A stretch of DNA of 64,000 bases, from assembly GCA_951406725.2 (NCBI GenBank), contig OX597827.1, forward strand, positions 36,828,001 through 36,892,000. Reading direction: 5' to 3'. Each line of letters opens with the position of its first letter. Position 1 is the stretch's first letter. The notes under the pieces were generated by a model. The model worked only from the letters and a program-made list of their open reading frames with translations. It was not told where the DNA came from and ran no database searches. A program made the translations under genes and the position numbers. Below, piece after piece: positions 1,087-58,900 of the stretch. The stretch is from Octopus vulgaris (taxonomy: Eukaryota).

Positions 1087-1514
1087 TAGTACATACATGG
1101 ATGTATGTACATGTGTCCCAATGGCAATTGTTGTTTTTATGTGATAGCTCTTCATTAAACAAGTGATGATATTCGCTACAAACATGCATCACCGATTCAA
1201 GTTTTATATGCCAAAAGACACATTGAACTTTTACTTTGCATTGTCCACATCTTGATTAATGCATTGGCTTGGCATTGTGTAATTTGTGTCACCCATACAT
1301 GATTTGCTGTGCTTGCATCCCATGTTTTTTTTTCATTCACCCAACTGGAGTATCAATTAAACGTGTGTAAGGCAACAAATGGAAGCCACCTCAGACTGTG
1401 CTAAACTGTATGCAAACCTTATTAGTTGGTCTCTTATTCAACATGTATATGAAATGTGTATGAAATAAAAGATGAAGACAGGTGAAGGAACAACAAGTAG
1501 GTGTATTAATTTAA

Positions 1515-1734
1515 GCCTTTCGTTACTAACGTGGCTGAAACCAGCTCTGGCTCTGAGTACAAATGTCTTGTTTTCATAAGTTTTGAATTAAAATCTTCCA
1601 CCAAACCTTAGTCACAATTTATGTTCCTAACATTAACTGAATGATAACAAAGTTATTTTATCAAATTCTTTGTTATATTTAAAGTAATTGAAAGAAACAC
1701 AGAGCATCCCAAAATAAATACAGTAATGAAAAGG
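1515..1734. mobile_element. piggyBac-type MITE
   Basis: TTAA|gcctttcgttact ... agtaatgaaaagg|TTAG: degenerate CCCTTT/AAAGGG TIRs with a TTAA-like TSD. It interrupts an older repeat; a related 5' part lies at ~38035. Confidence 0.55.
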
Positions 1735-2200
1735 TTAGTGCTTGGGAAGGATGGAAAAGTCTTTGATGTTTTGAGCCCATGGTTTTTGGCAGAAAGGATT
1801 GAGAGGGAAAAAAACGGAGAGAGAGAAAAAATGTGTTGGGATTATATGTATCATCATCATCATTTTAACATTCACTTCTCCTTGCTTGCATTGTTCAGAT
1901 AGATATTGTTGAGGCAGATTTTCTACAATTGAATTCCCTTCCTGTCACCCGTCACCAGTCCTCACTTGTTTCCAAGCATGGAAATGAAGGACACCACTTG
2001 TACAATGGTGATGGTGACACACATTTACAAATGATACACATACATTGTTAAGACAAAGAGGTTCAAACACATATACATGTTTTATTCCATTTCTTTTTAA
2101 CTTCACTGAGCCAACATAGTCTATGTGCTTCTACTATAAAAGAGGCCTTTTGTTTCTAACCAGTTTGTCTGAAGAATCGTTAATAGACATTAACACATTG

Positions 2201-2415
2201 AAGGCAGTGAGCTGGCAGAATCGTTAGAACATCAGGAAAAATGTTTAGCAACATTCCATCCTTCTTTACATTCTGAGTTCAAATTCTGCTGAGGTTGGCT
2301 TTGACTTTCATCCTTTTGGGGTTTATAAAATAACTACTAGTGGGACACTAGGGCTGATGTAATCAACTTACCCCTCCTCTAAATTTGCTGGCCTTGTGCC
2401 ACAATTTGAAATCAG
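2201..2415 (+). mobile_element. tRNA-headed SINE family A (with gcctttcatcctttcggggtcgataaa core)
   Basis: Head aggcagtgagctggcagaatcgttag and B-box-like gagttcaaattc. Related copies at 56396, 62140, 62385, 63241 and on the minus strand at ~15300, ~28300, ~53200. Confidence 0.7.
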
Positions 2416-3028
2416 TATTCTAACCAGTTATATACCATAACCAGTAATGTATCACCTGATGATGAAGATAATGATGATGATGAAAGTGTGTGTGTGTGCA
2501 CACTAGATTTCTTTCAGTTTCCATCTGCCTAATTCCTTCGGAAAAATTTGATTAATATAGTAAATGACACTTGCCCAGTGTGAATGAACCTGAAACCATA
2601 TGGTTGTGAAGTGAACTTATTAAGCACACCATCATGTCACCACCTATATGTATAGCACTCAAATTTACCATATGTTACATACTATCCTACCATCTTAAAA
2701 AAAATCAATGTAAGAACACCTTGTATTATGAAGTGTCCTATACAATATGTCTAAAGAAAGACATGATGACATAGCTGGCTCCTCATTGATTAATTATAGA
2801 TTGGCATAAACAGATTACCAACAACAGCAACAACAATTAAAACAAAATTTGTTTATGAAATAAGATAATGTGCTTGAGTGAATGTTTCAATTACTTAGTA
2901 TGGTAATTTCATTGTTCTGAGTTCAATCTCTGTTAGCTTCTGTTAAACAATATAATATTTGCTGTCACAGGCCATCCCCTCCCCAAATCTCCTTGGATTT
3001 GGGGGTTTTAACCAACACATATACACAT

Positions 3029-3063
<35 letters not shown>

Positions 3064-4271
3064 ATGTATACAGTGGAAGCTGCTTAATGTGATCACTTTG
3101 GGACATAGCCTTTTAGATAACAATAAATTCCGATAACATTAAACAAAAGAAATACTTATGTGCATGGCTCGAAACGTAAAAGACTTTTTCTATTCCTGAG
3201 CGTTATACTAATACACCTGTTTGTTTTATACACCACCTGTCTTCGCCTTTTGTTTTTTTCGTAAACTCTCCCTATATGTAAGTGTATACATATATATGTC
3301 TTTCTGTGTATGAGTATAGAATTCTCAGTTTGCTTGACTGTAAGGTATGTGTAGCTTCATATCCTTCCTAATGTACAATCATCATCATCGTCATCCTCAT
3401 CATTGCCACTACCACTACTGGCCATAACATCACAGATCACCACCCCATCACCACCGACAACGCTGGTACTGCTGCTAAGATTAACAATGACAACATCGAT
3501 GGTGACCATCTCCGTTGTCATTGTAACCACTACTATTACTCCTATCATCATCACCATCATCATCATCTCTAGAAATTGTCTTGGAAAAAATATTGAAAGG
3601 AATCTGAAAAGAGATATAAGATATGAAAAAAAAAACTATGGAAAAAATTAACAATGAACAATTAAGATGATAATTGTTATTGGTTAATTTTTAATAAGAA
3701 TCTTGAAAAATCAATGATGTTTATTGTTTTTAATTTCATTTGAAACATCACAGGTTATTTACAGGAGAACAGCAATGATGATAATGATGATGATGATGAT
3801 GATGATAAAAGTATTTGAGATCAAAAACTATAATAATGATAATTATAATTTTATTTGCCACAGGGGTATCCAGGGATGAGGACATTATAAAAACAGTTTT
3901 TATTTGTGTTCAGATTTATATAAAAACTGTTTGGGGAAAAGACATGAGAGGAGAGAAAAAATATACTTAATAACCAAAATGTGTATTCATGAATGATGCA
4001 GTCCTCCTGAAACGAGAGCCTTCAACTTGAAATAGTGAAGGAACTCCACAGATTCAGGATTACTCTGACTACCAAAAGCATGAACTCTCACCCAACTGTT
4101 GTTCTCCAGTGTATAGATGCAGACCCAATGGCCTACCAAGATTAAGTGCATTGCTTTTACCCCTAGACCAAACATTAACATGTAAAATAAAAGGGTGATG
4201 GACAAAGTAACAAATCATAAAGTTGTTGAGGCTTTTTGTAGAATCAACTGTAGAGGGATTGACACCAGCTG

Positions 4272-4315
<44 letters not shown>

Positions 4316-4328
4316 ATTATATAGAAGG

Positions 4329-4379
4329 AGCTTCTACAGGACTAGTACTGTTTCATTCAAGAGAAATCTTCAGGAAGCT
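4329..4379 (-). ncRNA. Minimal type I hammerhead ribozyme (left-arm copy)
   Basis: Exact reverse complement of 10534-10584. Confidence 0.75.
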
Positions 4380-4798
4380 ATTTAACAAGAATTGTATTAG
4401 CATTTATACATTTAGGCAGGTTTAAAGGAGTGGTGGTGGGGGACTTTTTGGGGGTAGGCATAGCGCAAAATATCATACTTGGGGAGTGGTCAAGGAGTCA
4501 GTGGTAAGTTAGATGAAGGAATAGATAAATAAAAAAATAAAAAAATAAAAAATAAAAAAATAAAATAAAATAAAAAAATAAAATAAAAAAAGAAAAAAAT
4601 AAAAAATATAAAAAATATATATAAAAATATATATATATAAAATATATATATAAAAAAATATATATAAAAATATATATAAAAAAATATATATATAAAAAAA
4701 GGGGGGATAGAGTTATAGGTAAATAAGGAGATTCTCACTTATACCTATACACACATGTATACGTATCTACACACACATACATACATACACATATATAT

Positions 4799-4845
<47 letters not shown>

Positions 4846-5291
4846 CCTACACATACACACATACATACATACAAATATACATATACATATATATATATAC
4901 AATCCAATACAGGCCCATTCCCTAATTTTAATTTTATTATCTTCATTTATTACTTTTGTTATCTTTGATCGCTAGGGCTAAGAATCCTGGCAATGGCTGC
5001 ATGTCCATTTGTCTGTCTACTAGAAGGCAAGTACTCATTCCCGCACGCACACTCATTAGCACGTACATTCACCCATTCGTACACTCATACACATACACGT
5101 ACGCACGCGTTATATTCATACATACAAACATCTACATACGTTCACGTATATACACATACGTACTCGTACCTACAGATTCGTGTCTACACTTTAGGAGGCT
5201 AGTCTATACATATACACCAATATATATACATATATATATATATATACCCGCATATACATACACACACACACATATATACTCCTACATACAG

Positions 5292-5366
<75 letters not shown>

Positions 5367-5852
5367 CACATACACACATACATATACACACATACATACA
5401 CATATATATACATACACAAACATATATACACACATATATATATACATACACACATACACACATACATACGTATACATACATACATACATCCATACATCCA
5501 TACTTACATGCATTTATACGCATACACACACCCATCTATATATATGTATACATATATATATATATATATACACACTCACACATACATATACAAATCTACG
5601 CACACACATACATACATACACGTATACGCATACACGCACATACACATATACATGCGTACCCATACACGTGCACACACTCACGCGCATCCATATATATACA
5701 CACACACACATATATATACACGTGTGCAAGCATACATACATACTCATACGCGCACACATACTTACAAATACATATATGCACACACTTACACACATATATA
5801 TACATACACATATACATGCATACATACATATATGCATACATACACACACGCA

Positions 5853-5904
<52 letters not shown>

Positions 5905-5959
5905 TACATATATAGATATACATACACATACATACACATACACATACATACACACATAT

Positions 5960-6004
<45 letters not shown>

Positions 6005-6554
6005 TACATATATACACATATACATACATATACATACACACACACATACACATATATACACATATACATACATATACATACACACACACATACATATATA
6101 CATATACACTGATACACATACCCATACATACACATGCATATACTTATATCACTACATACTCACATATATAAACATATATACATATACACACATACATATA
6201 TACATGTACATACACATACGTATGCATATATATATATATACATATATATACACATATATATATATATATATACATACATACACACACACACACACATACA
6301 TATACACATATACATGTATACATACGCAAAAATGATACACATATATACACATACACACACACAGACAGATGCATATACATACATATATATATATAAACTA
6401 CATATCTATATAAATACATACATAATACACATATACACACACATATATATACATTCATGCATATACATATACAAGTATACATACACATACATACACACAC
6501 ACGCGCACACATACATATACACACACACATATACAAATACATACATACACACAT

Positions 6555-6595
<41 letters not shown>

Positions 6596-6963
6596 TACAT
6601 ACATGTACACATATACATATGTATATATATATCAACAAGGGAGGGTAAAGTTAATTAGTTATTAATCAATTTCATCAAGTGTTCAGTATGTAAAGGGACC
6701 ATTATTATTTTGAGTAAACAATGTTAGAGGGAAAAAATTCTCTAAGTAGTGGAAGAGGCTAAAAAACTTTATTGGCTGCTATTTCTAGAAAGTTTAGTAT
6801 GTGGCAAAGTAATTTATTTTATTTTCCTAAGCCCTAATTATATAATATTTTATACATACATACACATACATAAGCACATACATTTACACATACATATGCA
6901 TATACATATATACACATATACATACAAACACATATACACATATACACACACACACATACAAGC

Positions 6964-7008
<45 letters not shown>

Positions 7009-7257
7009 AATATATATACATATATATTTTTACATGCATACATACACACACACACACATAATACATGCGTATATTCCTACTGTACCCATGCATTTCTATA
7101 CATATATACATACATACGATACACATATACAAGCGTGCACATATAATATGTGAAAGGTCCTAGGAGAAAAGGTAATCGGGGGTGCTAGGGGAACAGTGGG
7201 GTTGGGGGGGGTTGGGGGGGGGGCTGTAGGGTGGGGGGTTGTAGGGGGGGGTTGTCA

Positions 7258-7467
7258 TCAATCAGGTTGCTGGGTAGGTCTATAGTTCTTGTAGTTCGCA
7301 TACTTCTTATGCATGCAATTTGGGGAGTGTTCTGAAAATTTGTTAAGGAGAGGGCCTTTGGCGAACAAGATCTCTAGGCTCTCTGATATGCATAGGTCAC
7401 AGCAGGTATGTCCTCCTGTGTACGAGCGCGCCTTCTGTAGTGGTTTCCACTTGGTCTTGAAGGGGAT
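7258..7467 (-). pseudogene. PLE GIY-YIG endonuclease C-terminal fragment (left-arm mirror)
   Basis: Minus strand reads IPFKTKWKPLQKARSYTGGHTCCDLCISESLEILFAKGPLLNKFSEHSPNCMHKKY...*. Confidence 0.7.
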
Positions 7468-7470
7468 TGA

Positions 7471-7680
7471 GTTCCTTTTAAGACCAAGTGGAAACTACTA
7501 CAGAAGGCGCGCTCGTACACAGGAGGACATACCTGCTGTGACCTATGCATATCAGAGAGCCTAGAGATCTTGTTCGCCAAAGGCCCTCTCCTTAACAAAT
7601 TTTCAGAACACTCCCCAAATTGCATGCATAAGAAGTATGCGAACTACAAGAACTATAGACCTACCCGGCAACCTGATTGA
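7471..7680 (+). pseudogene. PLE GIY-YIG endonuclease C-terminal fragment (not in the ORF track, no ATG)
   Basis: Hand translation VPFKTKWKLLQKARSYTGGHTCCDLCISESLEILFAKGPLLNKFSEHSPNCMHKKYANYKNYRPTRQPD*. The W..L..Y..C.LC..E..IL..LN..E..C.H pattern is also seen at 59748-59948. Confidence 0.75.
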
Positions 7681-7925
7681 TGACAACCCCCCCTACACCC
7701 CCCCCCCCTACAACCCCCCTACAACCCCCCAACCCCACTGTTCCCCTAGCACCCCCGATTACCTTTTCTCCTAGGACCTTTCACATATTATATGTGCACG
7801 CTTGTATATGTGTATCGTATGTATGTATATATGTATAGAAATGCATGGGTACAGTAGGAATATACGCATGTATTATGTGTGTGTGTGTGTATGTATGCAT
7901 GTAAAAATATATATGTATATATATT

Positions 7926-7971
<46 letters not shown>

Positions 7972-8340
7972 ATGTGCTTGTATGTGTGTGTGTGTGTATA
8001 TGTGTATATGTGTTTGTATGTATATGTGTATATATGTATATGCATATGTATGTGTAAATGTATGTGCTTATGTATGTGTATGTATGTATAAAATATTATA
8101 TAATTAGGGCTTAGAAAATAAAATAAATTACTTTGCCACATACTAAACTTTCTAGAAATAGCAGCCAATAAAGTTTTTTAGCCTCTTCCACTACTTAGAG
8201 AATTTTTTTCCCTCTAACATTGTTTACTCAAAATAATAATGGTCCCTTTACATACTGAACACTTGATGAAATTGATTAATAACTAATTAACTTTACCCTC
8301 CCTTGTTGATATATATATACATATGTATATGTGTACATGT

Positions 8341-8378
<38 letters not shown>

Positions 8379-8924
8379 ATGTGTGTATGTATGTATTTGT
8401 ATATGTGTGTGTGTATATGTATGTGTGCGCGTGTGTGTGTATGTATGTGTATGTATACTTGTATATGTATATGCATGAATGTATATATATGTGTGTGTAT
8501 ATGTGTATTATGTATGTATTTATATAGATATGTAGTTTATATATATATATGTATGTATATGCATCTGTCTGTGTGTGTGTATGTGTATATATGTGTATCA
8601 TTTTTGCGTATGTATACATGTATATGTGTATATGTATGTGTGTGTGTGTGTGTATGTATGTATATATATATATATGTGTATATATATGTATATATATATA
8701 TATGCATACGTATGTGTATGTACATGTATATATGTATGTGTGTATATGTATATATGTTTATATATGTGAGTATGTAGTGATATAAGTATATGCATGTGTA
8801 TGTATGGGTATGTGTATCAGTGTATATGTATATATGTATGTGTGTGTGTATGTATATGTATGTATATGTGTATATATGTGTATGTGTGTGTGTATGTATA
8901 TGTATGTATATGTGTATATATGTA

Positions 8925-8969
<45 letters not shown>

Positions 8970-9024
8970 ATATGTGTGTATGTATGTGTATGTGTATGTA
9001 TGTGTATGTATATCTATATATGTA

Positions 9025-9070
<46 letters not shown>

Positions 9071-9570
9071 TGCGTGTGTGTATGTATGCATATATGTATG
9101 TATGCATGTATATGTGTATGTATATATATGTGTGTAAGTGTGTGCATATATGTATTTGTAAGTATGTGTGCGCGTATGAGTATGTATGTATGCTTGCACA
9201 CGTGTATATATATGTGTGTGTGTGTATATATATGGATGCGCGTGAGTGTGTGCACGTGTATGGGTACGCATGTATATGTGTATGTGCGTGTATGCGTATA
9301 CGTGTATGTATGTATGTGTGTGCGTAGATTTGTATATGTATGTGTGAGTGTGTATATATATATATATATATGTATACATATATATAGATGGGTGTGTGTA
9401 TGCGTATAAATGCATGTAAGTATGGATGTATGGATGTATGTATGTATGTATACGTATGTATGTGTGTATGTGTGTATGTATATATATATGTGTGTATATA
9501 TGTTTGTGTATGTATATATATGTGTATGTATGTGTGTGTATATGTATGTGTGTATGTGTATGTATGTGTA

Positions 9571-9618
<48 letters not shown>

Positions 9619-10068
9619 TATGTATCTGTATGTAGGAGTATATATGTGTGTGTGTGTATGTATATGCGGGTATATATATATATATGTATATTTATTGGTG
9701 TATATGTATAGACTAGCCTCCTAAAGTGTAGACACGAATCTGTAGGTACGAGTACGTATGTGTATATACGTGAACGTATGTAGATGTTTGTATGTATGAA
9801 TATAACGCGTGCGTACGTGTATGTGTATGAGTGTACGAATGGGTGAATGTACGTGCTAATGAGTGTGCGTGCGGGAATGAGTACTTGCCTTCTAGTAGAC
9901 AGACAAATGGACATGCAGCCATTGCCAGGATTCTTAGCCCTAGCGATCAAAGATAACAAAAGTAATAAATGAAGATAATAAAATTAAAATTAGGAATGGG
10001 CCTGTATTGGATTGTATATATATATATGTATATGTATATTTGTATGTATGTATGTGTGTATGTGTAGG

Positions 10069-10115
<47 letters not shown>

Positions 10116-10533
10116 ATATATATGTGTATGTATGTATGTGTGTGTAGATACGTATACATGTGTGTATAGGTATAAGTGAGAATCTCCTTATTTACCTATA
10201 ACTCTATCCCCCCTTTTTTTATATATATATTTTTTTATATATATTTTTATATATATTTTTATATATATATATTTTATATATATATTTTTTTATATATATT
10301 TTTTATATTTTTTATTTTTTTCTTTTTTTATTTTATTTTTATTTTATTTTATTTTTTTATTTTTTATTTTTTTATTTTTTTATTTATCTATTCCTTCATC
10401 TAACTTACCACTGACTCCTTGACCACTCCCCCAAGTATGATATTTTGCGCTATGCCTACCCCCAAAAAGTCCCCCACCACCACTCCTTTAAACCTGCCTA
10501 AATGTATAAATGCTAATACAATTCTTGTTAAAT

Positions 10534-10584
10534 AGCTTCCTGAAGATTTCTCTTGAATGAAACAGTACTAGTCCTGTAGAAGCT
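10534..10584 (+). ncRNA. Minimal type I hammerhead ribozyme in PLE pLTR
   Basis: agcttc CTGAAGA tttctcttgaat GAAA cag-tactagtc-ctg TA gaagct. Stem I agcttc/gaagct, stem III cag/ctg, GUA cleavage triplet, palindromic ACTAGT in loop 3; stem II weak. Confidence 0.8.
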
Positions 10585-11209
10585 CCTTCTATATAATAAA
10601 TTAATTTTACTCTGCTATGTATTGAGTACCTTACTTACTGTGGTTAACCCCGAATCAACCCGGGACCTACATATATATATATATAGATAGATAGATAGAT
10701 TATATATATATATATATTTATTTATATCTACATGCATATATATGTATATAATTATATGTGCATAAATATACACATATCCATACACGTATTTGCTAGAAAC
10801 AAGTAGAAGAAGTACAATTACAAAAACCTTTCATTAAAAGGAAATAAAACATGAAAGGTCATTGGTTAGGTTGAGTTAAAGCAGTCCATGATCCTGTTCA
10901 TCTAACCATTTCTAAAATTATGTACGAGACCAGTTGAATGCACCAGTAAACATTTTTTGAAATATTTGGTGCTGAAAATCTCAGTCTTGTGGGTATTCTC
11001 TTATTAAGTTTTGTGTAATGTCTTGCTTTTAATTTCACTGCTAGTCTATCTTCTCCATACTGTTACTGTTTTGAATTAACTAATTGTGTATCATTCTCTC
11101 TGTAGCATTACAGATGCTTTTTTCTGTTAACTATATGTTTGGTTTTCAATGAGTTGTGAATCCTAATTCGGCTTCATCTTCTTTATTTTCGCAATGGAAA
11201 TTGAAGCTG

Positions 11210-11850
11210 TGATACTAGTGCTGGTGGCACATAAGAGAACTATCCGAATGTGGCCATTGCCAGCGCCGCCCCGACTGGCCTCTGTGCTGGTGGCACATAA
11301 AAAGCACCATCCGATTGTGGCCGTTGCCAGCCTCGTCTGGCCTCTGTGCTGGTGGCACATAAAAAGCACCATCCGATTGTGGCCGTTGCCAGCCTCATCT
11401 GGCCTCTGTGCTGGTGGCACATAAAAAGCACCATCTGATTGTGGCCGTTGCCAGCCTTGTCTGGCCTCTGTGCTGGTGGCACATAAAAAGCACCATCCGA
11501 TTGTGGCCGTTGCCAGCCTCGTCTGGCCTCTGTGCTGGTGGCACATAAAAAGCACCATCTGATTGTGGCCGTTGCCAGCCTCGTCTGGCCTCTGTGCTGG
11601 TGGCACATAAAAAGCACCATCCGATTGTGGCTGTTGTCAGCCTCGTCTGGCCTCCGTGCCAGTGGCATATAAAAAGCACCCACTACACTCACGGAGTGGT
11701 TGGCGTTAGGAAGGGCATCCAGCTGTAGAAACTCTGCCAGATCAGACTGGGCCTGGCGCAGCCTTCTGGCTTCCCAGACCCCAGTTGAACTGTCCAACCC
11801 ATGCTAGCATGAAAAACGGACATTAAACGATAATGATGATGATGATGATT
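11210..11850 (+). repeat. RTE-3'UTR/SINE-type element containing a 62-bp tandem array (about 8 units, 11218-11680)
   Basis: Unit tctgtgctggtggcacataaaaagcaccatccgattgtggccgttgccagcctcgtctggcc starts at 11281, 11343, 11405, etc. It ends in ...gacattaaacgat(GAT)n. Related copies at 33400-33840, 36575-36770(-), 49760-50120 and 58573-58880. Confidence 0.8.
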
Positions 11851-13676: not shown

Positions 13677-15270
13677 AGTATCTGGGTATTTAGGAGTGTG
13701 ACAAAATCAAGGAGAGTTAGATGGAAGAAAGCTTTAGGCAAGAATACTTCAGAAGAACCAAATTAATTATGGAGAATAAACTCAATGAAAAGAACAAGAT
13801 CAGGGCAGTGAATACATGGGCTGTCTCCTTAATGTGATATGATGCAGGTGTTGTTAAGTGGGCAAAGAATGAGCTTAAGGAAATGGATAGAAAAACCATG
13901 AAAATGATGACAATGAACAAGGAACTGCACCCCAAAAAGTGAAATTTGTAGACTGTATGTGCATAGATACAAGGTAGGAAGAGGTCTCATGAGATGCAAG
14001 ATGTGTGTTGACAGTAAGTAAAACAACAGATTGAACTTTTGGTTGTTGCTGTTAGAAATAGCAACAGATTACCCAGTGAAAATGTGACACACCCAAAAAA
14101 CATTTAAGAAACGAGATAGAGAACAAAAATTAAACAACTGGAAAGTGAAAGTGAAAGTGATGCATGGGCAATACCTCAGAAAAATGGAAAGGAAAGACAA
14201 GACTAATACTTGGAAGTGGCTAAGGAAAAGTGTTCTGAAAGGATACACTGAGGTATTGATATGCAATGCTCAAGAACAAGCACTGAGAAGTAATTACACC
14301 AAGTTCCAAATAGATAAGAGCAATGAATCACTCCTTTGTAGAATGTGGGGCAGCAAAAACAAAACAATTTCACATATTGTGAGTGAGTGTAGTAAACTGA
14401 CTCAAAAGGAATATAAAAGGAGGTATGATAACATAACAATTGCAGCGTGGAAGGTGTTTGTAAGCCATTTAAGAAACACACAAAAGCCGTTCGATTCACT
14501 TCAACATATAAGTTTAATTTGTCAAAATATTTTCGTCGCTTAATTTGATTTGTCAAACTTAAATGTTGAAGTGAATCGAATGGCTTTTGTGTGTTTCTTA
14601 AATGGCTTACAAACACCTTCCACGCTGCAATTGTTTTCGTTTCAGCACACGATCTCAGATCAAATCACTTGCTATGCAAGTACATCTCCGTAATATGATA
14701 ACATAGCTGTGAGTAAGTTTGTTCACTGGAGACTGTGTGAGAAGTATAGTCTTGAAAGAACACAGAAATGGTATGAACATGAACCAAGAGGCATCACTGA
14801 GAATAATGAGTATAAGATCTTATGGGATTTTGCAATCCAGTGTGATTCAGTGTTTGTTGCTGTGGATAAAAAGGAAGAAGGAAACCAAGATCGTAGATAT
14901 TGCCATACCTGGGAATGCACAAATTAGTGACAAAGAACTGGATAAGATTGAAAATTACAAGCTACCAAATGACGAAATTACATGAATGTGGGCCATGAAC
15001 AGAGTAACTGTCTTCTCAGTGGTTGTTGGGGCACTGGGAGCATTAGCAAGCAAGTTTGAGAAATATGTTGACAAAATTGGAATTGGTATGGGAGTAGAAC
15101 ACACTCAAAAAACTGCATTATGGGGGATAGCTAGGATCTTGAGATTGGCACTTGGGTATTAAGTATCATAGAAAGAGACCTTGTGAGACCATTGACAAAA
15201 GGTTGCTGTCTACTCATACAGAGATAGCTGGAGCAAGGAAAATTGGGAGCTCTGAGAAGTGAAATAGAAA
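13677..15270 (+). mobile_element. R4/Dong-clade non-LTR retrotransposon, 5'-truncated and decayed
   Basis: KYLGI, KIRAVNTWAVS, MDRKTMKMMTMNKELHPK, HGQYLR..QEQAL..CRMWG..TISHIVSEC, ILWDFAIQCD, VDIAIP, VVVGALG: RT C-terminus, CCHC and REL motifs. Flanked by AAT repeats. Confidence 0.8.
14436..14693. mobile_element. 258-bp foldback-plus-tail insertion with 12-bp TSD, probably PLE pLTR-derived
   Basis: TATGATAACATA at 14424-14435 and 14694-14705. Inverted arms 14436-~14515 and ~14554-14634; tail 14635-14693. Confidence 0.8.
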
Positions 15271-18125: not shown

Positions 18126-19410
18126 AATCGCATCTCCATTCTTGCAATGTCTCTCCACAGAAATCAGTCACCTCACTACCCATGTGACATGGGACATGGC
18201 CATTCAACTCTTGAAAGTCTAAGGCCGGCCTGATCTTACCCTTCATTGGCTGCACCACTGCCATTAGTGGCAGCACTCTGCTCTTCACTTCCTCCTTGCA
18301 CAGGATTAGGATACCCTCCTTGATTCATCTATCTACCTCTCCTTCAAACTCACTCCTGCAATCTCCTTTCAAGGTATACTGATAACAGCTTAGCCTGTTC
18401 TCAACGTTGAGGGCTCCCCTTTCCAGCACCACTCAAACATCCACTGTTGACCATTGAACACTGCCTGAAAATTTTTATCTTCAATGGTACCCATGCTAGC
18501 ATGGAAAGCGGACGTTAAACGATGATGATGACGATGATGATGGTGTGGACAGTACAATCCTCCCTAGGGTTCTGCCCACTCTCTTGTTGCATACTCACAG
18601 CACATGATGCCCCTGCATCACCAAATGAAACTGTGTCTCCACTAATAATGACGCCTCCTAGGTGGTTGATTGCATCCATGCCTATCACCACATCAATTCC
18701 ATCTACCACATGGTCAATCACAATTACCCGCAGTCTTAGTGTTGTAGTGCCCCACACTGTCATCTCTACTTTACTGCTACCTTTACATCTAATTTCGTTG
18801 CCATTGACTGCCTGAACATTAGTTGTCCCCTTCCACTTTTTTGTCACCCTTGGGATCATGAGAGACGTTGTACAGTCCATATCCATGAGGGCTTTGAATG
18901 CCTTTCCTCCAGCTTGGACTTCAACTTTAGGCAGTAACTGCATGAGAGCCTTTATTTGCTCATGGGGAAAGTTTGAGAGGCAACAACTTCCTCATGATCT
19001 TTTCCCTGGCTGTTCTGCTTGTACTAGTAGCATATGGGTTTGGGCTTCGTCTCTGCACAGTTCCTTGCCATGTGAAGTCCCTGGCACTTGAAACACTAGC
19101 CCATAAACGGTTGCTGCCTCACCTTGCAGCTTTTCTCTCCTCATTCTTCGCCGATTGTCATATGATGCTGTGGGTTTCCACAGCTGCCATTGCCACTACA
19201 TTTGGGTGTTGACATATGGGCTTGAGTAATGAATTTGCTCATCACCATTTTCTCACTGTCCAGCAGTTGTTGCAGCCACACCAATATGTCATCAGGGAAT
19301 CCTTTTACAAAAGTCAACCATGCTGTCTTTTCTAGTCCCTCTCCAGTAAAACCAGATAGCATGACCAGCCTCCAAGTTTCTGCTGCATACACATCCACCT
19401 GTTCTCCTTA
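18126..19410 (-). mobile_element. Ty3/Gypsy-like gag-protease-RT fragment, decayed
   Basis: Gag-like ORF 19141-19398; aspartic protease-like FKALMDMDCTTSL..DVVIGMDAI (18515-18943); RT start VQPMKGKIRPALDFQELN (18085-18288). Confidence 0.7.
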
Positions 19411-29230: not shown

Positions 29231-29731
<501 letters not shown>

Positions 29732-30476
29732 CTAGCAATGATGATGCATCAGATCAGCTGTTACTTATCATATACTTTTACTTCTTCCCAATTTTCTCAC
29801 TCCCTCTCTTCTCTTGCTCTCTGTATACTTATGTGTATGTGCATCATGTATGCATATTCATATATACAATATATCTATCATAGTTTCTCTCTCCCACACT
29901 CACTCACTCAATCACTCACTCATTCACTCACAATCAATCAATGAATCATTCAATAAAGAAATAAATAAATAAATAAATAAAGAAAGAAAGAAAGAAAGAA
30001 AACTGTCAGCAGACCTGAAAATGAACAGTGGTAAATTATCAGGAAAATGACAGAAAATTTAGATAAATATTTGTATCTAATTGGAAGAAATGTCTGAAGG
30101 CAATCAGACCAACATTGAATTGATTTGTGTAATGTCGTCCTCAATGATGTTTTTTTGCTGTTGCTTGTTGTTGATGTTGATCACACACACCATTCTAGCA
30201 TATTATATGTATTCATTATGTGTGTGTGTGTGTGTGTTTGTGTGTGTATTTGTGTGTGTGTGTGTTTGTGTATGTGTGTGTGTTTATATATTGATATATT
30301 TTTCTAAACTTCATAAGTTCAAATCTAAATGACAAATAAAGAAAAAATTAAAAGGTAAAAATAGATAAATGGATACATTGAAAGAAAGGCTGAGATTATA
30401 TGTCAGTCTGTATGTGTGTGTGTTTATATATATATATATATATATCAAAATAAGCAACAAGGATATCCAAGGTAGA

Positions 30477-30562
30477 GTAGTACAATTGTTTCATGCTACT
30501 TCGTTTTATTAAACCCTGTAAGTATTACATCAGTTTTAAAATGTCGAGCAATCTTCAGCCAC
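30477..30562 (-). ncRNA. Hammerhead ribozyme (mirror copy in left arm)
   Basis: Reverse complement of 30703-30788 with intact core. Confidence 0.6.
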
Positions 30563-30702
30563 ATATAGAATTCTTCAATTAAACGGACAATGCACAATGA
30601 TGAAATTAACCTCCCTGTCTATATATATACCCTCTTTGCAATGTTGGCAAATGAAATAAGTATAAGAAAGTGCATTGTCCGTTTAATTGAAAGATTCTAT
30701 AT

Positions 30703-30788
30703 GTGGCTGAAGATTGCTCGACATGTTAAAACTGATGTAATACTTACAGGGTTTAATGAAATGAAGTAGCATGAAACAATTGTACTAC
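30703..30788 (+). ncRNA. Type I hammerhead with long stem/loop II
   Basis: gtgg CTGAAGA ttgct...agcat GAAAC aatt GTA ctac. Stem I gtgg/ctac; palindromic ACAATTGT. Confidence 0.65.
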
Positions 30789-31286
30789 TCTACCTTGGAT
30801 ATCCTTGTTGCTTATTTTGATTATAATCACCCCATTTGATTTATATGGATAATACCATACAAAATTCTGGTGCCTTTAAATTAAGTACCATATTCATCTG
30901 AATCTAAATTTTGCTGAACTTATATATATATATATCAATTATCCCACCTCATCATCAACAGACAAGACAGGCAGGTACAAAAAAAAAAGTAGAACTTCTT
31001 TATGGTGTAGGAAATTTGCATAAATGAAATGAAAATGAGCTAAGAGAAATAACTAAGAATAGCCAGTAACAGGCATTTATAAAGCAGATAAAAAGAAGGG
31101 TATATTAAATAAAATACAAGATAAACTCTTGTATTATTGAAATTATTTCCACTTCCAGAGAGAGTAGACCAAGTGCTTCATGGCATTTGGCATGCCAAGT
31201 TCAAATGAGTAGGAAAGATAATCTAAAGAATCAAAAATTCTCAAAAACTAACATGCCATTTAGGAAAAAAAATCAAATCACATTGA

Positions 31287-36562: not shown

Positions 36563-37974
36563 GCTATCATCATCATCATCGTTTAACGTCTGTTTTCCAT
36601 GCTAGCACGGGTTGGACAGTTCAACCAGGGTCTGGGAAGCCAGGAGGCTGCACCAGGCTCCAGTCTGATCTGGCAGTGTTTCTATAGCTGGATGCCCTTC
36701 CTAATGCCAACCACGTGAGTGTAGTGGGTGCTTTTTACGTGCTACCGGCACAGGTGCCAGGGGAGGCAGGTACCTACCATCTGTCTCTCTGTCTATCGAT
36801 CTCCTTGTCTGTGTGAATGTATGTATATAAATCACTTAATATATTTTGCTATGGACACAGATATAATAAAATCTTTAATAGAATCTCATTTAAAATTAGC
36901 TATTGTTGTAAAATCTATTAAGCAGTGTAAAGGTATAAAGTGCTCTGATGTTAATATCAATACTTCTACATGTAATTATGTGAAGCCTCAACAACAACCT
37001 CTTTATTGATAGTTGTTGGTCTGTGAGATTATGTAAAGTATGAGGGTGCAAAATGACAACAATCCAATATCAAAGATTTACTCTGGATTGATGGACAAAA
37101 TATATTTATATGTGATTTTACTAGTGTAAGAATTCTTTAAATAGTCAGATAAAATGTTTTCTCTGTGTCTAAGTATATTTGGCTTTTAAAACAATGTAGC
37201 TCTGCACCTTTTAAGGTATACTTGCTTATCTTAGAATACATGTTCGTCCATGCAGGCATGGCTCCCAGCATGCCTGTGCATGGTGTACTTTGTGCTTCAG
37301 TAAAGATTCTTCCTTATATTCAGAACTAATTGGATTTTGAATGGAAAAGGTGAATTATTAAATTCTTGCAGGTATTTCTTGAGATTCTTGTGTTGTAATC
37401 TAATACTTTGCAATAATGAAATACATATAAGTACTATATTGAACAGTCCCATTGAAATGCATATTAAATGATTTTAAATGATACTTTGACCGACTAATTT
37501 TATACCTCGGTTTGAAAATTTTTTACTATTTTCTATTTTCTCATATTTTCCGTAATCAACGGAACATTTTTAATTTCCTGATTTGACAAACTCTTACCCT
37601 TTATGCTGTGAAACTCTCTGTTTTAGAATAGCTCTCTCCCTTGTAATTAATAAAATATTTTACATCTATTGAAAAAAATTAATTTACATACTTTAAAATA
37701 AATTCATCTGAAGAATTTGAAATATTCTAGGCAAGGTCTCACTTCTTTACCTATAACTATATTTTCTAAGTAGTATATATTTGTCAACTCATGCACATAT
37801 TTACCTATATACACCCATGTTAGCTTACGTATGTACCTGTGTATATGTTTGTGTAATATACATTGTAGCATTTATTTTTATATATTTCTATCTTCTATTT
37901 TTAACATATTTTCTTTGCTTATTCAATGTTTTTTCACATGCACATGCATGCTCTCTCTCTCTCTCTCTCTCTCC

Positions 37975-42301: not shown

Positions 42302-45300
42302 TGTTGTGGAAGGATTCTGATCATTCCTCAAGTGACTAAAAGGTGAACTGACTCATTGTAATAAAACAGAACTGTGAGTGATTGGCGATTCGTGTTGGTA
42401 GCAGTTCACTGTGAACCTTTGATATAGAGTGTTGAGTCTCATGTAATAGTAATAGTAGTGCATCGTGTGTATACTTTCTACCCCCTGCTTCATTATATTA
42501 TATGTCCAATACAAGGATATAAAAGAAGCGATGAGTTGTTCAAAGCTTGTGTTGAGTGTTTAAAATTTTTTGGGGTATGAAACGAAAGAAAAATTTGTTT
42601 AACGTGGAGAACTTATTGGCTTCCATGGTGCAGTTGCAACAGCAACTACAACAACAGCAGTTGCAACAACAACAACAAAACCAACAATTGCTAGAATTAA
42701 TGTTGAAGAAGTCTGAAAATACTTCAGGTGCATACTCGCTAGATGGTGTTGCAAACTCAATTGAAGAATTCAGCTATGAACCAGAAGGGATTACCTTCTC
42801 TGCATATTTTCGTAGATAAGAAGAAATTTTCCAAGAAGAGTGTAAAAGTTAGTCTAGCAAGAAAAAAATTCAATTACTTTTAAGAAAGTTATACCTTGCC
42901 GAACACACACACACACACACACACACAAAAAAAAGACAGTAATTATATTCTGCTGTAGAAGCCAGGTGAGATTTATTTTGATGAAACAATATTTTATCAA
43001 AAATGTTTGGTGGAAGAAATTCCCTGTTCAATGCATTCCGGCAATGTTTAAATTTGGTCAAAAAAGACAAAGATTTTGTCATCTATGCTAGAGTAGTTAA
43101 CAGAGAGTGTGAAAAATTCAGACTGAATGAGTTGACAACGGATATGTTCAAGTCTTTAAGTTTTGTTCAATGGCTTACTACAAAGATGCAGATTTACATT
43201 TCTGGATATTAACAAAATTAGAACGAGATAAAAATTTAAGTTATAATTGGATACAGGCAGCGACATCTCAGTAATTAACTGCGATACATGGAAAAAGATT
43301 GGAATACTTAAATTAAATGAAACCTCGAAAATTGCCTGTGGTGTTTCAGAAACAAAATTATATCATAAGGATGAATTGATAAGTAAGATTACAATTCCTG
43401 AAAAAAACGTTAAACATTTTTGTGTTAAATAGTACAACAAACTTGTTCAGTACTAACTGCATGGAACAGTTTAATTTAAGGGACCTTCCTATAAATCTTT
43501 TCTGTAAAAATGTAAATTGTTTTCCCTCCAGTACAAATAAGTGATCAGACGAATCGAAAAAAATGTTTTAATATTTCTCCTAAAGTTCTGTCTGATAAAT
43601 TAGGTCTGTGTACTAAAATGAAGGCATGGTTTCAAATACAACAAAATGCCATACTGACATTTAAACAAAAACGAACATTAGAACAGATAAACTTAAAGAG
43701 AGATTAGAAAAAATTGGAGTTATCCAAAAAGTGAAATATTCTGAAAGGGCAGCAACAACTGTATACATTAAGAAAAAGAATAATAAAATCAGAGGAGTGT
43801 GCACTGATTTTTACACTGGTTTAAATGAATGTCTTAAAATGTGCCACTATCTGCTACCTGTTCCAGAAGATATTTTTGTGAAATTAAATGGTGGCAAGTA
43901 TTTTCTAAATTGGATCTCTCTGATGCATACCTACAAACTAGAGTAAACGATGAATGCTCTAAATACCTAACAATTAACACACATAAAGGACTGTATAAAT
44001 ACAACAGGTTACAATTTGGCTTAAAAGTCACACCAATGATTTTTCAACGGAATATGGATGCAATGTTGGCAGACTGTGAACTTGCAATTCCATATCTGGA
44101 TCATGTACTCATTAACAGTGAATCCAGGGATCAGCAGGTAGAGCTCGTAAAATATGTGTTTGAAAAAATTAGACATTACGGCTTTACTTTGAGTGAAGAA
44201 AAGTGTGTATTTTTCTTACCAGAAATAAAATATTTAGGACATATCCTGTTAAGAGCAGTTGTAATTAAAACTATGTCCCCTCTGACTAATATAGCGACCT
44301 TAAAAGCATTTTTACGATTGGTAAATTACCAAAATTATATTCCAAATATTTATAAGGTGAAGTTTCCACTAAATAATCTGCTGAAAAAAAGATATGAAAT
44401 GGAATTGGTCAGAAAATTGTCATTAGGCATTTGAGGGAATAAAAAAAAATACTAACATACGATTTATTGTTAGCATATTTCAATATTGCAGTGGAGATTG
44501 TTGTAGCTTCAGATGCTTCTCAGTACAGTATAGGAGCAGTAATGCTATATAAATATAAAGAGGGTAACATGAAGTTAGTGTTCATGCCTCATATTCTTTG
44601 ATATCAGCAGAGGAAAATTATAGTCAAATCGAAAAAGAAGCTCTAGTGATCATTTTTACCATGAAAATCTTTCACAGATTTTTGCATGGTAGAAGTTTTC
44701 ATCTACAGACTAATCACTGCCCGTTCATCTGGATTGTCTTTCAAGACTGATTTCAAAAAGTGAGGAACTATTTGAAGATACTGTGACTGCTGCTTTGTGA
44801 GCGGAAAATGAAATTATAAATGTTTGGTGTAACATTATTCATAAACTGCCAGTGACTTTACAAGGCATAAAATTAAAATCAGAAAATGATAAATGCATTA
44901 TAAAAATGAAGGAAATACTGAAGGCTAAAAGTGCTAAAAATATGCACAACACAAATGTGACCCATTTCTCACTGTGTGACAATGTACTGATGTATGCACA
45001 GAAAGTCATAGTGCCAGCCACATTGCAAAGGCAATTATTAAAGGAATTTCATATGGGTCACCAAGGGATTTCAAGAATGAAATCATTAATGAGAAGGTAA
45101 GTATATTGGCTAACAGTGGACTGTAGCATTGAAGAATCAGTGAAATCATTCAGAGAGTGTGCCTTAGCTACAAAATCTTCTACCACTAAATGGCAACCAT
45201 GGCCAAAGACAGATGTTCCATGGGCCAGACTGCATATCGATCATACAGGTCCACTTAAGGGTTCACATTACCTTGTGGTGGCGGATAGCTTTTCAAAGTG

Positions 45301-46619: not shown

Positions 46620-48830
46620 TGAGAGGTTTTGGTATCCAGAAGATCCATTTATACTTCCTATATTCCTCCCTTTCTAAAATAAATTCTTATATTGAACTCT
46701 ACTATTTCCCTATATTTAACTCTCTCATATTGTCTTTGATGAAGGGATATTTTCCTCATACCCCTGAAACAGCTGTAAGACAACCTTTCTCGTTATAAAC
46801 ATCCTAGAAATTTTACACTGCCTTGGCTTTGTTGTCTCATTTTATTTAACATCTCGCTAAATTCAAGGAAGACTTATACAACATTGTGAAAAACATTGAA
46901 TTTAGAAAAAAAATATATGCAAACACCCACACCAATGTAAACTTAGGAAAATACTTGATGTGTTTGAAAAGGCCCAGGGAATAATTGTACCAGCTGACAA
47001 AACTGGTAATGTTTATATTGTTGACTTTAATCCCTATAACAATCTCATACGTCACGAACTATGCGGTAAATACAGACATGCACAAACAGACACATAATAA
47101 ATAGAAAGGGATTAGAAATAGTAAATAACTTAAATATACACGATAGAACTGAATCTTGTATGCCATGGAAACCTCAAATACAAATAAAAATCACAAGCCA
47201 AACTTCCACATTGCCCCCTCTGTTAGATTAATCTGTCCCTCTAAATCTGACACCGGGAGGAATAGTCAGACAATATTAGATAGGATTATACCCCAACTTT
47301 GATTTAGAAATACCCTAGGACTATGGTTCAACACCCAACAAGTAATTGGGTGGTTTAACCACTTAATAACAAGCAAAGAAAGCAAATTCATTCAACTATA
47401 CATCGAGGGATATTATGCCAGCATTAACCCTATCCTCTTAAATAAGGCTTTAATCTTTGCTAGAAATATTTCAGATCCTTTCAGATACGAAATTGACATA
47501 GCTATGGGACCATTTGATTCTGCAGAAGTAACTGACCTTGTAGGAATTTACATCCTATCCCAGATACAATTATATATTCCTGGATTGAATGGAGGCCTAT
47601 ACAGAGATGACACATTATACTTCCTACAGAGATGTAGCGAAGTACAGAACAAAAAATCTCTATTTAAGTTTTTTAAAAATAATGAACCAACGAATACTGT
47701 AGACTCAACTTTTTAGATGCTACTTTTGACTTGGATACTGGTCTACATGAATCATTCCATAAACCTAATGAGTACCTAAAATACATCAACGTTGGATCTA
47801 ATCATCCACCATCAGTAATTAGGGGACTCGTTAACAACACCTCTGCTTGAATATCCAGGTTATCTGCAAATGAAAACACAACAATAACTACATAAATAAT
47901 ATCAAAAACCTAGATAATAGAATCCAAAACCATAAGATAAGACTAATCAAACCCTGACACATTCGAATCAACCACGAGTTAAAGAAAACTTGTAACAGAC
48001 AACAAATTAAACAACTACTGCTACAAAATACAATTGATGCTCCAAGCACCCAGACAGACAGACCTAACTGAAAATATAAAAACCATGATGTCCTTTGGTA
48101 TAACCCAATCTGGAACTCCAACATCTCATCTAAGATCACGAAACAATTTTTCACCGCACTTGTTTGCTGCTTCCCTAAAAATGGAGTGTACAACAAAATA
48201 TTCAACTCTCACACTATGAAACTGTCCTATGCAAATTCATCAAACTTAGAGCACCATATTCGTAAGATTAACAATCGTAAACTGAGGTGAAGACTAGTCA
48301 ACACTCAAAATAACCTTCTTGACATCAACCATAACTCATATGAACAGCCTAAAGACAACGTTTATAACTCGAATTATACTACCAGCTAACAGAGCAATAA
48401 TTACAATATCCATGATAACCATCCAAAAGACAACACCAGCAATAATTAAAATAATAAACTGAGAACACCTAGTGATTATAAAATGATAATATTGACAACT
48501 AAAATACAGAACAGAACCAATCTCTCCAGTGCTCGATGTACACAAGCCAACAAAATCAAACAGTTATGCTCATGCAAAGATAGATCCAGTTGCCCTTTGG
48601 ATAACCAATGTATGACTTAGAACCTGGTATACAAGTGCACTATAAAGACTAGAGGAGGCCCCTATGTATATATCGGGGCATGTGTCGTACCCAATAAAAT
48701 ATTTTACTCACTCCATCTATTTTATTAATACTGTTACCCCAACCGCCACTACGAAGTTCCTGCAATAAATTTAAGGATAACAACAGATAATCGAAACTGT
48801 GCCGGTAGTTTACTCATCATCTGTTTATAC
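46620..48830 (+). mobile_element. Penelope-like element, decayed body with upstream pLTR
   Basis: ADKTGN, MGPFDSAEVTDLVGIYIL..GLYRDD, HKPN...YIN..SNHPP, KIFNSHTMKLSY, CSCKDRSSCPLDNQC..NLVYKC..YVYIG: PLE RT and GIY-YIG. Confidence 0.85.
46730..46783 (+). ncRNA. Minimal type I hammerhead in PLE pLTR
   Basis: ttgtct tTGATGA aggg...ccct GAAAC agct GTA agacaa. Perfect 6-bp stem I, palindromic ACAGCTGT, C3U core variant. Confidence 0.8.
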
Positions 48831-49759: not shown

Positions 49760-50117
49760 TGCATGCCGGTAGCACGTAAAAGCACCATCCGTTCGTGTCC
49801 ATTGCCAGCCTCGCCTGGCCCTCGTGCCGTTGGCATGTAAAAGCACCATCCGCTTGTGTCCGTTGCCAGCCTCGCCTGGCCCCCGTGCCGGTGGCACGTA
49901 AAAACACCATCCGTTTGTGGCCGTTTGCCAGCTCTGTTTGGCACCTGTGCAGGTGGCACGTAAAAAGCACCCACTACACTCACGGAGTGGTTGGCGTTAG
50001 GAAGGGCATCCAGCCGTAGAAACACTGCCAAATCTGACTGGGCCTGATGAAGCCTTCCGGCTTCACAGACCCCAGTTAAACCGTCCAACTCATGCTAGCA
50101 TGGAAAACGGACGCTAA

Positions 50118-50150
<33 letters not shown>
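49760..50150 (+). repeat. RTE-3'UTR/SINE-type element with ~4 internal units
   Basis: Same units and tail as 11210-11850. Confidence 0.75.
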
Positions 50151-56582: not shown

Positions 56583-58572
56583 TTAAATCAAAGTGCTGTG
56601 GAGTAGGATTGAACTGGAAACCATGTAGTTATGATGCAAACTTTTTAATTACATTACAATGTCTGCATCTTGAAACATAGTCACCCAACATGAGAAAACT
56701 ATTCTGAATACATCAGTAAACTACAGTGTATAATACTCGTATAATACTGATATATATATCATTATTCTGCAGTATATAATACTGGTATACTGATGTATGT
56801 GTGTGTGTATATGTATGTGTCTGTGTGTGTATATATGTGTGTACGTATGTATATATGTATGTATGCTGCAGTGCATAATACTGATATATATATATATATA
56901 TATATATATGTTATACACTCGTATATGTATTCTGTGATTTATTAACAACTGACATTTATGTAGCTAGCAACATTAATTCATTTGTAATAGTTATATTTAA
57001 TTTTATCATGAGAGTAGAGTGTAGTTAATTGAATTAACTAACCTCTATACTTAAGTACTTTTCACTCCATTTCATTCCCATTGCAAAAATAAAAAGTCAA
57101 ATGAAACTAGTTGGATATGGAGACAGGATATTTTAACCATTTTGCAGTTTAGTCTGAGAGCAAAGGCAATGACCATCAACTTTTATTTAGAGTTCCCAAC
57201 ACTGCTGAATAGAAGAAACCATAATCTATGAATTGCAGTGTTCAGGAGCAGTAGATCAATCTGGTCTGAATAATTGCAACAGAGTGAGCTTTGTTAAAGT
57301 CCTCTGCCTAAAATCCAGGTAGCAGTGTAAAACCAGGCATTAAATTCAGTCAACACTCATGATTAAGATATATGCCATTGCAAGGTGACATAGCTAAATA
57401 TTAACCCTCTCTTAGTTGCACCATCTTTGTATATGATGACAACAACAAAAACAAGAATAAGAATAAGAATAAGAATAAGAAGACGAAGAAGAAGAAGAAG
57501 AAGAAGAAGAAGAAGAAGAAGAAGAAGAAGAAGAAGAAGAAGAACAACAACAACAACAACAACAACAACAATAATAATAGTAGTTAGTGTGAGAGGAAAT
57601 AACACCATATTAAACATTTATTTTAGGCCAATAGTTATTTCTACTTTTGGTAGACTTGATAGACTATTATTTCTTCAGTTTGGTATGCTGCTGCTGCTAC
57701 AACAACAACTACTGCTGCTGCTGCTAGATACAGTTGCTGGAGATTATTGAATTACTACAATAGCTGCTTTGTAAAATTGATAATATGAAAATAATCTTGG
57801 AGGAGTTTTGAAGGAAAATGAATTGGTTTTAGCAAGAATAAAGATTTCTTCCTGGGAGGTAACACACACGCACATGCACATATGCACACAAGCATGGCTT
57901 GGGGTGTCACACATAAATGGATAAATATATATAGTAATTGTTTATGTTTTCACGCCAAAAAAATACAAACATGACTGAAAAACATACAAAAAGTATTTTG
58001 GTCTTCTGACTAAATAGAAAATAAGATAACATAGTCTTTCATATGTAATAAAACAAGTGATGGTTGTGCATAGAACTAATGCAGGGAAGAAGAAATGAGC
58101 TAATTGTTGAAATAATGGTCATTGAACAGAAAAAAGCAGAGGTAGAAGTAAGCCAATATGAAATGTAGCTGGGGAAGATTGAAAACAGGATGAAAAGAAA
58201 AACTAGGGAAATTAGGCAGGACTGAATCCTGCATGTGTTGGTGTTAAGGACCAAAAAGGAAGAAATTAAGTAGAAAGGTCAATGAAAACTTATGATGCAC
58301 ACATAAATATAATCTTTTATCCTTTACTTGTTTTGGTCATTAGACTGTGGCCACTCTGGGGCTTTACCTTGAAGAATTTTTTGTCAAATGAATCGACCCC
58401 AGCATATGTTTTTTTAAGCCTATACACTGTAAAATGGTTGGTGTTAAGAGACCTTGCCAAAGCAGACACTGGAGTTCAATGCAGTCCTCTGGCTCATTAG
58501 CTCCTGTTAAATGATCCAACCCAAGCCTAAATGATGATGATAGTGATGATGATTTTATATGTATATATATAT

Positions 58573-58900
58573 GTGCTGGTGGCACGTAAAAAGCACCATC
58601 CGAATGTGGCCGATGCCAGCGCCGCCTTGACTGGCTTCTGTGCTGGTGGCACGTAAAAAGCACCAACCGATCGTGGCCAATGCCAGCCTCCCCTGGCACC
58701 TGTGCCGGTGGCACGTAAAAAGCACCCACTACACTCACGGAGTGGTTGGTGTTAGGAAGGGCATCCAGCTGTAGAAACACTGCCAGATCAGACTGGAGCC
58801 TGGTACAGCCTCCTGGCTTCCCAGACCCGGGTCGAACTGTCCAACCCATGCTAGCACGGAAAACGGACGTTAAACGATGATGATGAGGATGATGATGAAA
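58573..58900 (+). repeat. RTE-3'UTR/SINE-type element with 3 internal units
   Basis: Same units and tail as 11210-11850. Confidence 0.75.

Follow-up and report, generated by a model that had tools for sequence, protein, structure and literature searches.

A foldback with a hammerhead motif in each arm in Octopus vulgaris, probably an insertion made by Penelope-like element machinery

Results

Layout of the locus

The window, i.e. the whole stretch of Octopus vulgaris DNA that was analysed, comprises 64,000 nucleotides of contig OX597827.1. Near its middle, at 30444-30920, lies a foldback that we attribute to the 3' end of a Penelope-like element (PLE), with the following parts.

30425-30443, no strand: left (TA)n target microsatellite, delimited by sequence; the AT at 30444-30445 can be assigned to either side
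30444-30596, minus strand: left arm, probably a copy of the element's 3' end that is inverted, 5'-truncated and devoid of the tail
30477-30562, minus strand: type I minimal hammerhead of the left arm, core 30558-30552, predicted cut after 30481
30597-30920, plus strand: main copy, probably the non-coding, 5'-truncated 3' end (UTR/pseudo-LTR) of a PLE
30597-30669, plus strand: 'spacer', the 5' part of the main copy that lies beyond the reach of the inverted copy
30670-30821, plus strand: right arm, that section of the main copy of which the inverted copy is the mirror image, delimited by alignment
30703-30788, plus strand: type I minimal hammerhead of the right arm, core 30707-30713, predicted cut after A30784
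30822-30920, plus strand: one-sided tail of 99 nt, which belongs to the family and is among its most deeply covered parts
30921-30935, no strand: right (TA)n target microsatellite, delimited by sequence and by contig loose ends

A first-pass annotation of this DNA had described 152-bp inverted arms, a one-sided tail of about 100 bp and (TA)n flanks, and all three were recovered at the positions listed. The arms align over 152 nt each (30444-30595 and 30670-30821) with five mismatches. Position 30596 was added to the left arm because the family has a T at the mirror position 30669 in ~99% of contig depth. The inverted copy is 5'-truncated and joined to the main copy at its 5' end, and the tail is present on a single end only; both features are found in endonuclease-bearing PLEs. 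The inverted copy stops 37 nt past its own hammerhead cut site. The insertion lies in (TA)n, a trait that is not unique to the Hydra clade of PLEs, and contig loose ends past 30912 and 30935 continue with (TA)n, followed by mixed sequence. The two copies are head to head, with no tandem array at 30444-30920. The delimitation of the main copy is based on one family contig of run X1 that is collinear with 30600-30719, and family contigs cover the 'spacer' in all three contig runs. The tail and the spacer contain short open frames only, without similarity to PLE proteins.

Three of the five mismatches between the arms are G:T on the plus strand (30503:30762, 30507:30758 and 30572:30693); the other two are A:G at 30540:30725 and C:A at 30573:30692. 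The first-pass annotation had counted the G:T pairs correctly. The bias that this count seemed to indicate is not significant, with three G:T among four transition mismatches (binomial p 0.31), or five of six when pooled with the mismatches in the unique sequence of the sister element at 4313-10670 (p 0.11). Compared with the family states, each of the three G:T mismatches is a private A>G change on the plus strand, which would fit editing, yet the excess is not significant.

Other features were observed around the element. A TATA-like word is present at 30661-30669, ~35-40 nt upstream of stem I and near the rise in family depth; it may be a chance occurrence in a sequence with 65% AT. The right flank contains pieces of other, rarer repeats at 31004-31071 and 31106-31241, with a summed contig depth of 600-5000. 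A perfect (ATG)n run occupies 29231-29730 (500 bp, 167 units, 100% matches).

Hammerhead motifs

Each arm carries one hammerhead pointing outward, on the plus strand in the right arm (core 30707) and on the minus strand in the left arm (core 30558), as the first-pass annotation had claimed. In the right arm, stem I comprises four base pairs (30703-30706/30785-30788), an extra U is found at 30714, and a long stem II (30715-30771) precedes the GAAA at 30773-30776 and a palindrome at 30776-30783. The palindromic stem III reads ACAATTGT, and 59 nt separate CTGAAGA from GAAA, in agreement with the palindrome and the ~60-nt stem/loop II noted before. The insert in stem II amounts to 51 nt between TGC and GCA. 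The cut that had been expected after 30784 is predicted at the correct position for this motif.

A relaxed hammerhead scan of the whole window returned four cores, all inside the arms of two foldbacks (30444-30920 and 4313-10670), and the same scan on 40 block-shuffled windows gave a mean of 0.075 cores with a maximum of one. At the gathering score, Rfam gave no matches in the window, and at E up to 10 it gave only chance miRNA and snoRNA matches, without a hammerhead. A pattern scan of metagenome contigs likewise returned no matches. The predicted long stem II is modestly stable (z -1.74; nine of 200 shuffles equally good). Family variants preserve the palindrome of stem III through a two-sided change, 30778 A>G, with a loose end reading ACGATCGT. 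As judged from sequence and predicted structure, a minimal type I hammerhead lies near the 3' end (pseudo-LTR, pLTR), which is typical of PLEs. Its core is canonical and its cut-to-end distances are 37 and 136 nt, consistent with the Hydra clade; the intact core argues against Naiad/Chlamys PLEs, which lack canonical hammerheads.

The idea that the hammerheads 'cap' a foldback unit did not hold: each is a ribozyme motif near the element 3' end and was doubled together with that end, so that the hammerhead is present twice because the 3' end is present twice. The whole plus strand is predicted to fold at -269.6 kcal/mol, or at -136.3 kcal/mol with the hammerhead forced. The arm duplex is thus favoured over the ribozyme fold by ~133 kcal/mol, and according to this model the 152-bp arm duplex should block hammerhead cleavage at 30444-30920. 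For the main copy alone, the corresponding energies are -53.6 and -42.0 kcal/mol, and the palindrome duplex contributes -6.4 kcal/mol. With one motif per strand, the two hammerheads at this locus cannot dimerise in cis. For the same reason, and because a read-through transcript would form the 152-bp duplex, this copy is probably inert.

The repeat family in public contigs

A search of sequencing runs covered 24 runs, of which 20 contained part of the stretch, with four organism labels and ten studies; none of those listed as containing it is recorded as RNA. Four of these runs (X1, X4, X9 and X22) were mapped to 30290-31280 at 85% likeness. Family contigs numbered 6616 in X1, 5855 in X4 and 499 in X9; X9 is RNA by guess only and consists of contigs, which say nothing on expression or cleavage. 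In X22, 16 of 12.9 million raw reads mapped, too few for copy number or an empty site. Over the element, the summed contig depth reaches 10^5-10^6, which is not a copy number, and single contigs have depths of 24-70; from these data, we infer that the family comprises thousands of copies.

Among the entries listed, at least 13 distinct antisense-to-sense junctions were found at other breakpoints (15 of 59 joints and 12 of 30 between-letter rows), for instance 30547 to 30638, 30567 to 30751 and 30562 to 30910. Four of these 13 are present in both X1 and X4. The contig sides at the junctions are short (20-54 nt where given), and in some other copies the main copy is too short to contain the hammerhead. 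At the mirror positions 30515/30750, both arms of our locus carry the same minority base, from which ~98-99% of the family depth differs; as this base is shared by both arms, they were copied from one parent in one event. Among the contigs listed, none crosses the junction of 30444-30920 itself, and among the joints listed, none corresponds to an empty-site allele. One X4 contig joins 15 nt of the element end to the right flank, too short to serve as a bridge.

In seven of the 13 listed junctions, the inverted copy terminates at mirror positions 30698-30718. The summed depth falls ~6-fold at the 5' edge of stem I, from 819,000 in the X1 bin 30528-30561 (mirror 30704-30737) to ~137,000 in the two bins just upstream of that edge; X4 behaves alike. 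These observations are a hint that the majority of copies start at the hammerhead, with the reservation that depth is unreliable and that the listed rows were selected. A clustering of main-copy starts at 30793-30805, just past the cut site, was also considered and was rejected, since the between-letter sequence of at least two rows shows earlier starts with divergence there.

Other foldbacks in the window

The first-pass annotation had reported three such elements in 30 kb. Three foldbacks with a one-sided tail are indeed present, of which only two carry hammerheads. The sister foldback at 4313-10670 has arms of ~3.1 kb that are near-identical outside microsatellites. Its centre (~7303-7635) encodes, in both arms, the C-terminal end of a Hydra-type GIY-YIG endonuclease (E 4e-10 and 5e-10), with the CxxC/CxH motifs at 7477-7635. 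The distance from the end of this ORF to the hammerhead is ~2.9 kb, mostly TA/CA microsatellite; as the Hydra clade is described as shorter than 3 kb in all, this stretch is unusually long. The sister foldback is a PLE by its protein, and 30444-30920 has the same layout, cut shorter. As had been noted before, the layouts match and the sequences are unrelated: the local alignment score of 126.5 lies within the range of 200 shuffles (122 +/- 8), and nothing is shared beyond the core.

The third foldback (14435-14695) has arms of 73 bp at 14435-14507 and 14563-14635, a 55-bp spacer and a one-sided tail of ~57 bp. It is flanked by a 12-bp direct duplication instead of (TA)n and lies inside a decayed ORF, presumably a LINE fragment, for which Pfam gave no significant match. 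Neither scan detected a hammerhead in 14435-14695, and this foldback possibly belongs to another PLE clade.

Penelope-like ORFs and other repeats in the window

A 137-aa frame at 47303-47713 has 577 relatives at E up to 0.001 in a representative protein library, and among 89 candidates it has one long relative, P0001 (E 6e-17). P0001 carries the motifs RWK, DKT, CxCX5C, CxxC and CxH, which are described for the Hydra clade (PMC8557442). A PLE profile was built from the 28 of 151 fetched proteins that are at least 550 aa long, and it matched at 46.8-48.7 kb (best E 4e-35), at 58.9-59.9 kb (E 3e-25) and, with the E values given above, in both arms at the centre of the sister foldback. Pfam at its curated cut-off gave no family for the PLE fragments or for P0001, and their identity is based on sequence searches and motif comparison.

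The region 46620-48830 is a decayed Hydra-type PLE comprising the reverse transcriptase (RT) with the DKT motif, the linker and the start of the GIY-YIG domain, with TA-rich repeats on its flanks. A decayed hammerhead with a C3>T core change lies at 46736-46777, just upstream of the ORF and on the same strand. The region 58947-60226 is the decayed 3' half of a Hydra-type PLE, in which the linker was recognised and a Ser/Thr/Asn-rich insert lies inside the endonuclease region; by eye, it resembles Hydra-1_Obim. A decayed hammerhead follows its ORF at 60142-60193, 32 nt before (TA)n.

RT fragments (Pfam RVT_1, E 1.4e-21) and a weakly scoring aspartyl-protease match (E 0.069), at 43838-44434 and 18515-18991, are probably decayed LTR retrotransposons. 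A dispersed repeat family is found at 11218-11831, 49764-50122, 58572-58878 and 36578-36770, the 5' part of which contains 2-7 tandem units of 61-67 bp.

Discussion

Insertion by Penelope-like element machinery

The locus has a two-copy geometry, a tail on one side and a TA target, and the junctions vary among the members of its family. In our view, 30444-30920 is very probably one insertion made by PLE machinery, and the TA-targeting Hydra clade is the most likely origin of that machinery. We have high confidence that insertion at this locus works like PLE insertion. As no ORF was tied to the family, we infer clade and autonomy: membership of the Hydra clade is likely, but the clade could also be Neptune or Nematis, since both carry hammerheads and Neptune is linked to microsatellite targets. 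No RT or endonuclease profile matched in 30444-30920, and the contigs are too short to reach the upstream part of the element; the absence of a protein-profile match in this copy is expected, because it is truncated within the 3' UTR.

By analogy with published PLE work, the GIY-YIG endonuclease would cut (TA)n, and reverse transcription would start at two sites within the transcript's 3' end, ~37 and 136 nt downstream of the cut site. These two start sites would produce one end with the tail and the other without it. Two prematurely ended cDNAs would then be joined at their 5' ends, with a turn-round point that would vary from copy to copy. The hammerhead would be the ordinary ribozyme of the PLE pseudo-LTR, which may act as a dimer through its palindromic stem III in tandem, same-strand copies. 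The parent RNA could be that of an ORF-bearing element or of a short non-autonomous derivative. The first-pass annotation had taken the foldbacks as the sign of a general mechanism rather than an accident. This is true in so far as the mechanism is PLE insertion, which had already been described, and with hammerheads in only two of the three foldbacks.

Alternative explanations

The same features could suggest that the foldback is a unit capped by hammerheads, which transposes as such, is trimmed symmetrically by its ribozymes like a viroid and owes its G:T pairs to selection or A-to-I editing. The presence of a hammerhead in each polarity, the three private A>G changes on the plus strand and the junction 30567 to 30751, ~3-fold deeper than the others, are in line with such a unit, which we consider very unlikely. 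Breakpoints vary between copies and some copies lack a second hammerhead, the arm duplex is favoured over the ribozyme fold by the ~133 kcal/mol given above, the G:T pairs are not in significant excess (p 0.31; 0.11 pooled), and PLE insertion accounts fully for the layout. An only slightly less probable view is that of a MITE or another DNA transposon that has terminal inverted repeats of 152 bp and targets TA. It would be expected to show inverted arms flanked by TA, whereas the tail of 99 nt is situated beyond the right arm and ranks with the deepest-covered regions of the family, the arms differ in length from copy to copy instead of ending at fixed positions, and a PLE-type hammerhead is present. 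A fold-back artefact of the assembly or of reads can be practically dismissed: it would agree with the finding that none of the contigs listed spans the junction of this locus, but the arms differ at five of 152 sites, the flanks are unrelated and analogous junctions occur in independent runs.

A distinctly more serious alternative, which we nevertheless regard as doubtful, concerns the parent of the family rather than the insertion. The family could consist mainly of a SINE-like, non-autonomous derivative of ~220 nt with its start immediately 5' of the hammerhead, which a PLE protein would copy in trans, in which case 30444-30920 would be a minority copy with extra upstream sequence. The ~6-fold fall in depth at the 5' edge of stem I and the seven of 13 listed junctions with inverted copies ending at 30698-30718 speak for this derivative; capture in trans by pLTRs has been published (PMC3846280), and retrozymes have been proposed as non-autonomous PLE derivatives (bioRxiv 10.64898/2026.07.22.740005). 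Against it, depth in contigs does not measure copy number, and diverged upstream subfamilies are lost at the 85% likeness cut-off; moreover, the family sequence extends at least 100 nt upstream, ordinary 5' truncation yields a trend in the same direction, and the junction rows are a selected subset. Tentatively, this can be extended to a mass-amplified non-autonomous PLE parasite of roughly 220 nt, probably present in thousands of copies, with an RNA that starts just 5' of a hammerhead whose 51-nt stem II insert is unusually long and that ends at one or the other of two RT start sites ~100 nt apart. As two end classes occur clade-wide in the published Hydra consensuses, the Hydra clade would then have a tail of 70-100 nt. 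This extension is possible rather than probable, and no description of such a long Hydra-clade tail was found in the literature searched. If it is true, the many natural inversion junctions would map where both cDNAs start and stop.

Significance

With PLE insertion as the preferred reading, the single locus matters little, as transposon debris of this type has been described before. The family is abundant, and the locus is an instance of an already described PLE insertion pattern, not a new system. The family itself was not described in the literature searched or in the supplement of Craig et al. 2021; it may already carry a name in Repbase or Dfam. The parts of the literature drawn on here (PMC8557442, PMC11167929, PMC3846280) treat as open questions by which route PLEs generate inverted copies and tails and which role their hammerheads play, and the family, with its very many short insertions, could be useful for testing models of both the inverted copy and the tail by counting end points and turn-round points. 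In annotation work, stubs of this sort easily pass for MITEs or microRNA hairpins.

Comparison with known systems

The layout resembles that of endonuclease-bearing PLEs, which have an inverted pLTR and a tail (Arkhipova et al. 2013, PMC3846280; Frangieh et al. 2024, PMC11167929); the head-to-head copy and the single-end tail are alike. The tail of these PLEs measures 30-40 bp, so that the 99 nt at 30444-30920 is ~3 times longer. In addition, a target duplication is unreadable inside (TA)n at our locus, and its junction is without a palindrome. Craig et al. 2021 (PMC8557442) describe an inverted 5'-truncated copy, a one-sided tail of 30-40 bp and a (TA)n bias, and a curation guide treats inverted pLTRs and 3' extensions as routine (PMC8969392). 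For a Poseidon element, the PLE endonuclease is reported to cut AT-rich DNA on both strands, with reverse transcription starting at two internal sites whose interval equals the tail (PMC11167929). Hammerhead cleavage is described as dispensable for insertion in vitro (PMC11167929). The joining of two 5' ends is unsettled in print, self-priming on an antisense template having also been proposed (PMC3846280).

Among Hydra-clade PLEs, Penelope-13_HM, Penelope-5_HM and Hydra-1_Obim likewise have (TA)n targets and a hammerhead near the 3' end, and Penelope-13_HM is listed with an inverted 5' copy and a hammerhead on each strand (File S2, PMC8557442). The T-TGC...GCA-TGAA scaffold is the same in eight of 25 families of File S2. 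In 24 Hydra consensuses, the distance from the cut to the 3' end is 30-48 nt in 10, 63-70 nt in two, 88-153 nt in 11 and 355 nt in one; these distances were taken from the numbers in Files S1 and S2, leaving out Penelope-18_HMa and the antisense row of Penelope-13_HM, and are approximate to a few nucleotides. The two ends at 30444-30920, at 37 and 136 nt, correspond to one in each main distance group, and those of the sister element are at ~20 and 92 nt. In contrast, stem II loops have 3-10 nt in the Hydra rows of that source and 51 nt at 30444-30920; long loops are listed there for the spike-moss PLE-X1. The hammerhead and flanks of Hydra-1_Obim, as listed, differ from those of our element, and two 14-mers of the element are absent from the supplement of PMC8557442.

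The hammerheads themselves can be compared with the dual minimal hammerheads that lie 100-700 bp apart on opposite strands and are related to truncated PLEs (Cervera and de la Pena 2014, PMC4209133). Schistosoma Cercyon and truncated PLEs in that work resemble our locus in having a pair of minimal type I hammerheads, one per strand and ~150 bp from each other, and the motifs share a short helix I, an extra nucleotide 5' of stem II and a palindromic helix III. The consensus given there has a much shorter stem II with G10.1-C11.1 at its base, whereas 30444-30920 has U:U and then U-A. Metazoan PLE hammerheads are reported to cut weakly, as dimers (PMC4209133). Animal non-LTR retrozymes (Cervera and de la Pena 2020, PMC7229834; bioRxiv 10.64898/2026.07.22.740005) are also short and non-coding, carry type I hammerheads and are probably moved by PLE proteins. 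As described in these sources, they are head-to-tail tandems with same-strand hammerheads, whereas the locus at 30444-30920 is a head-to-head pair with a minimal, PLE-type motif.
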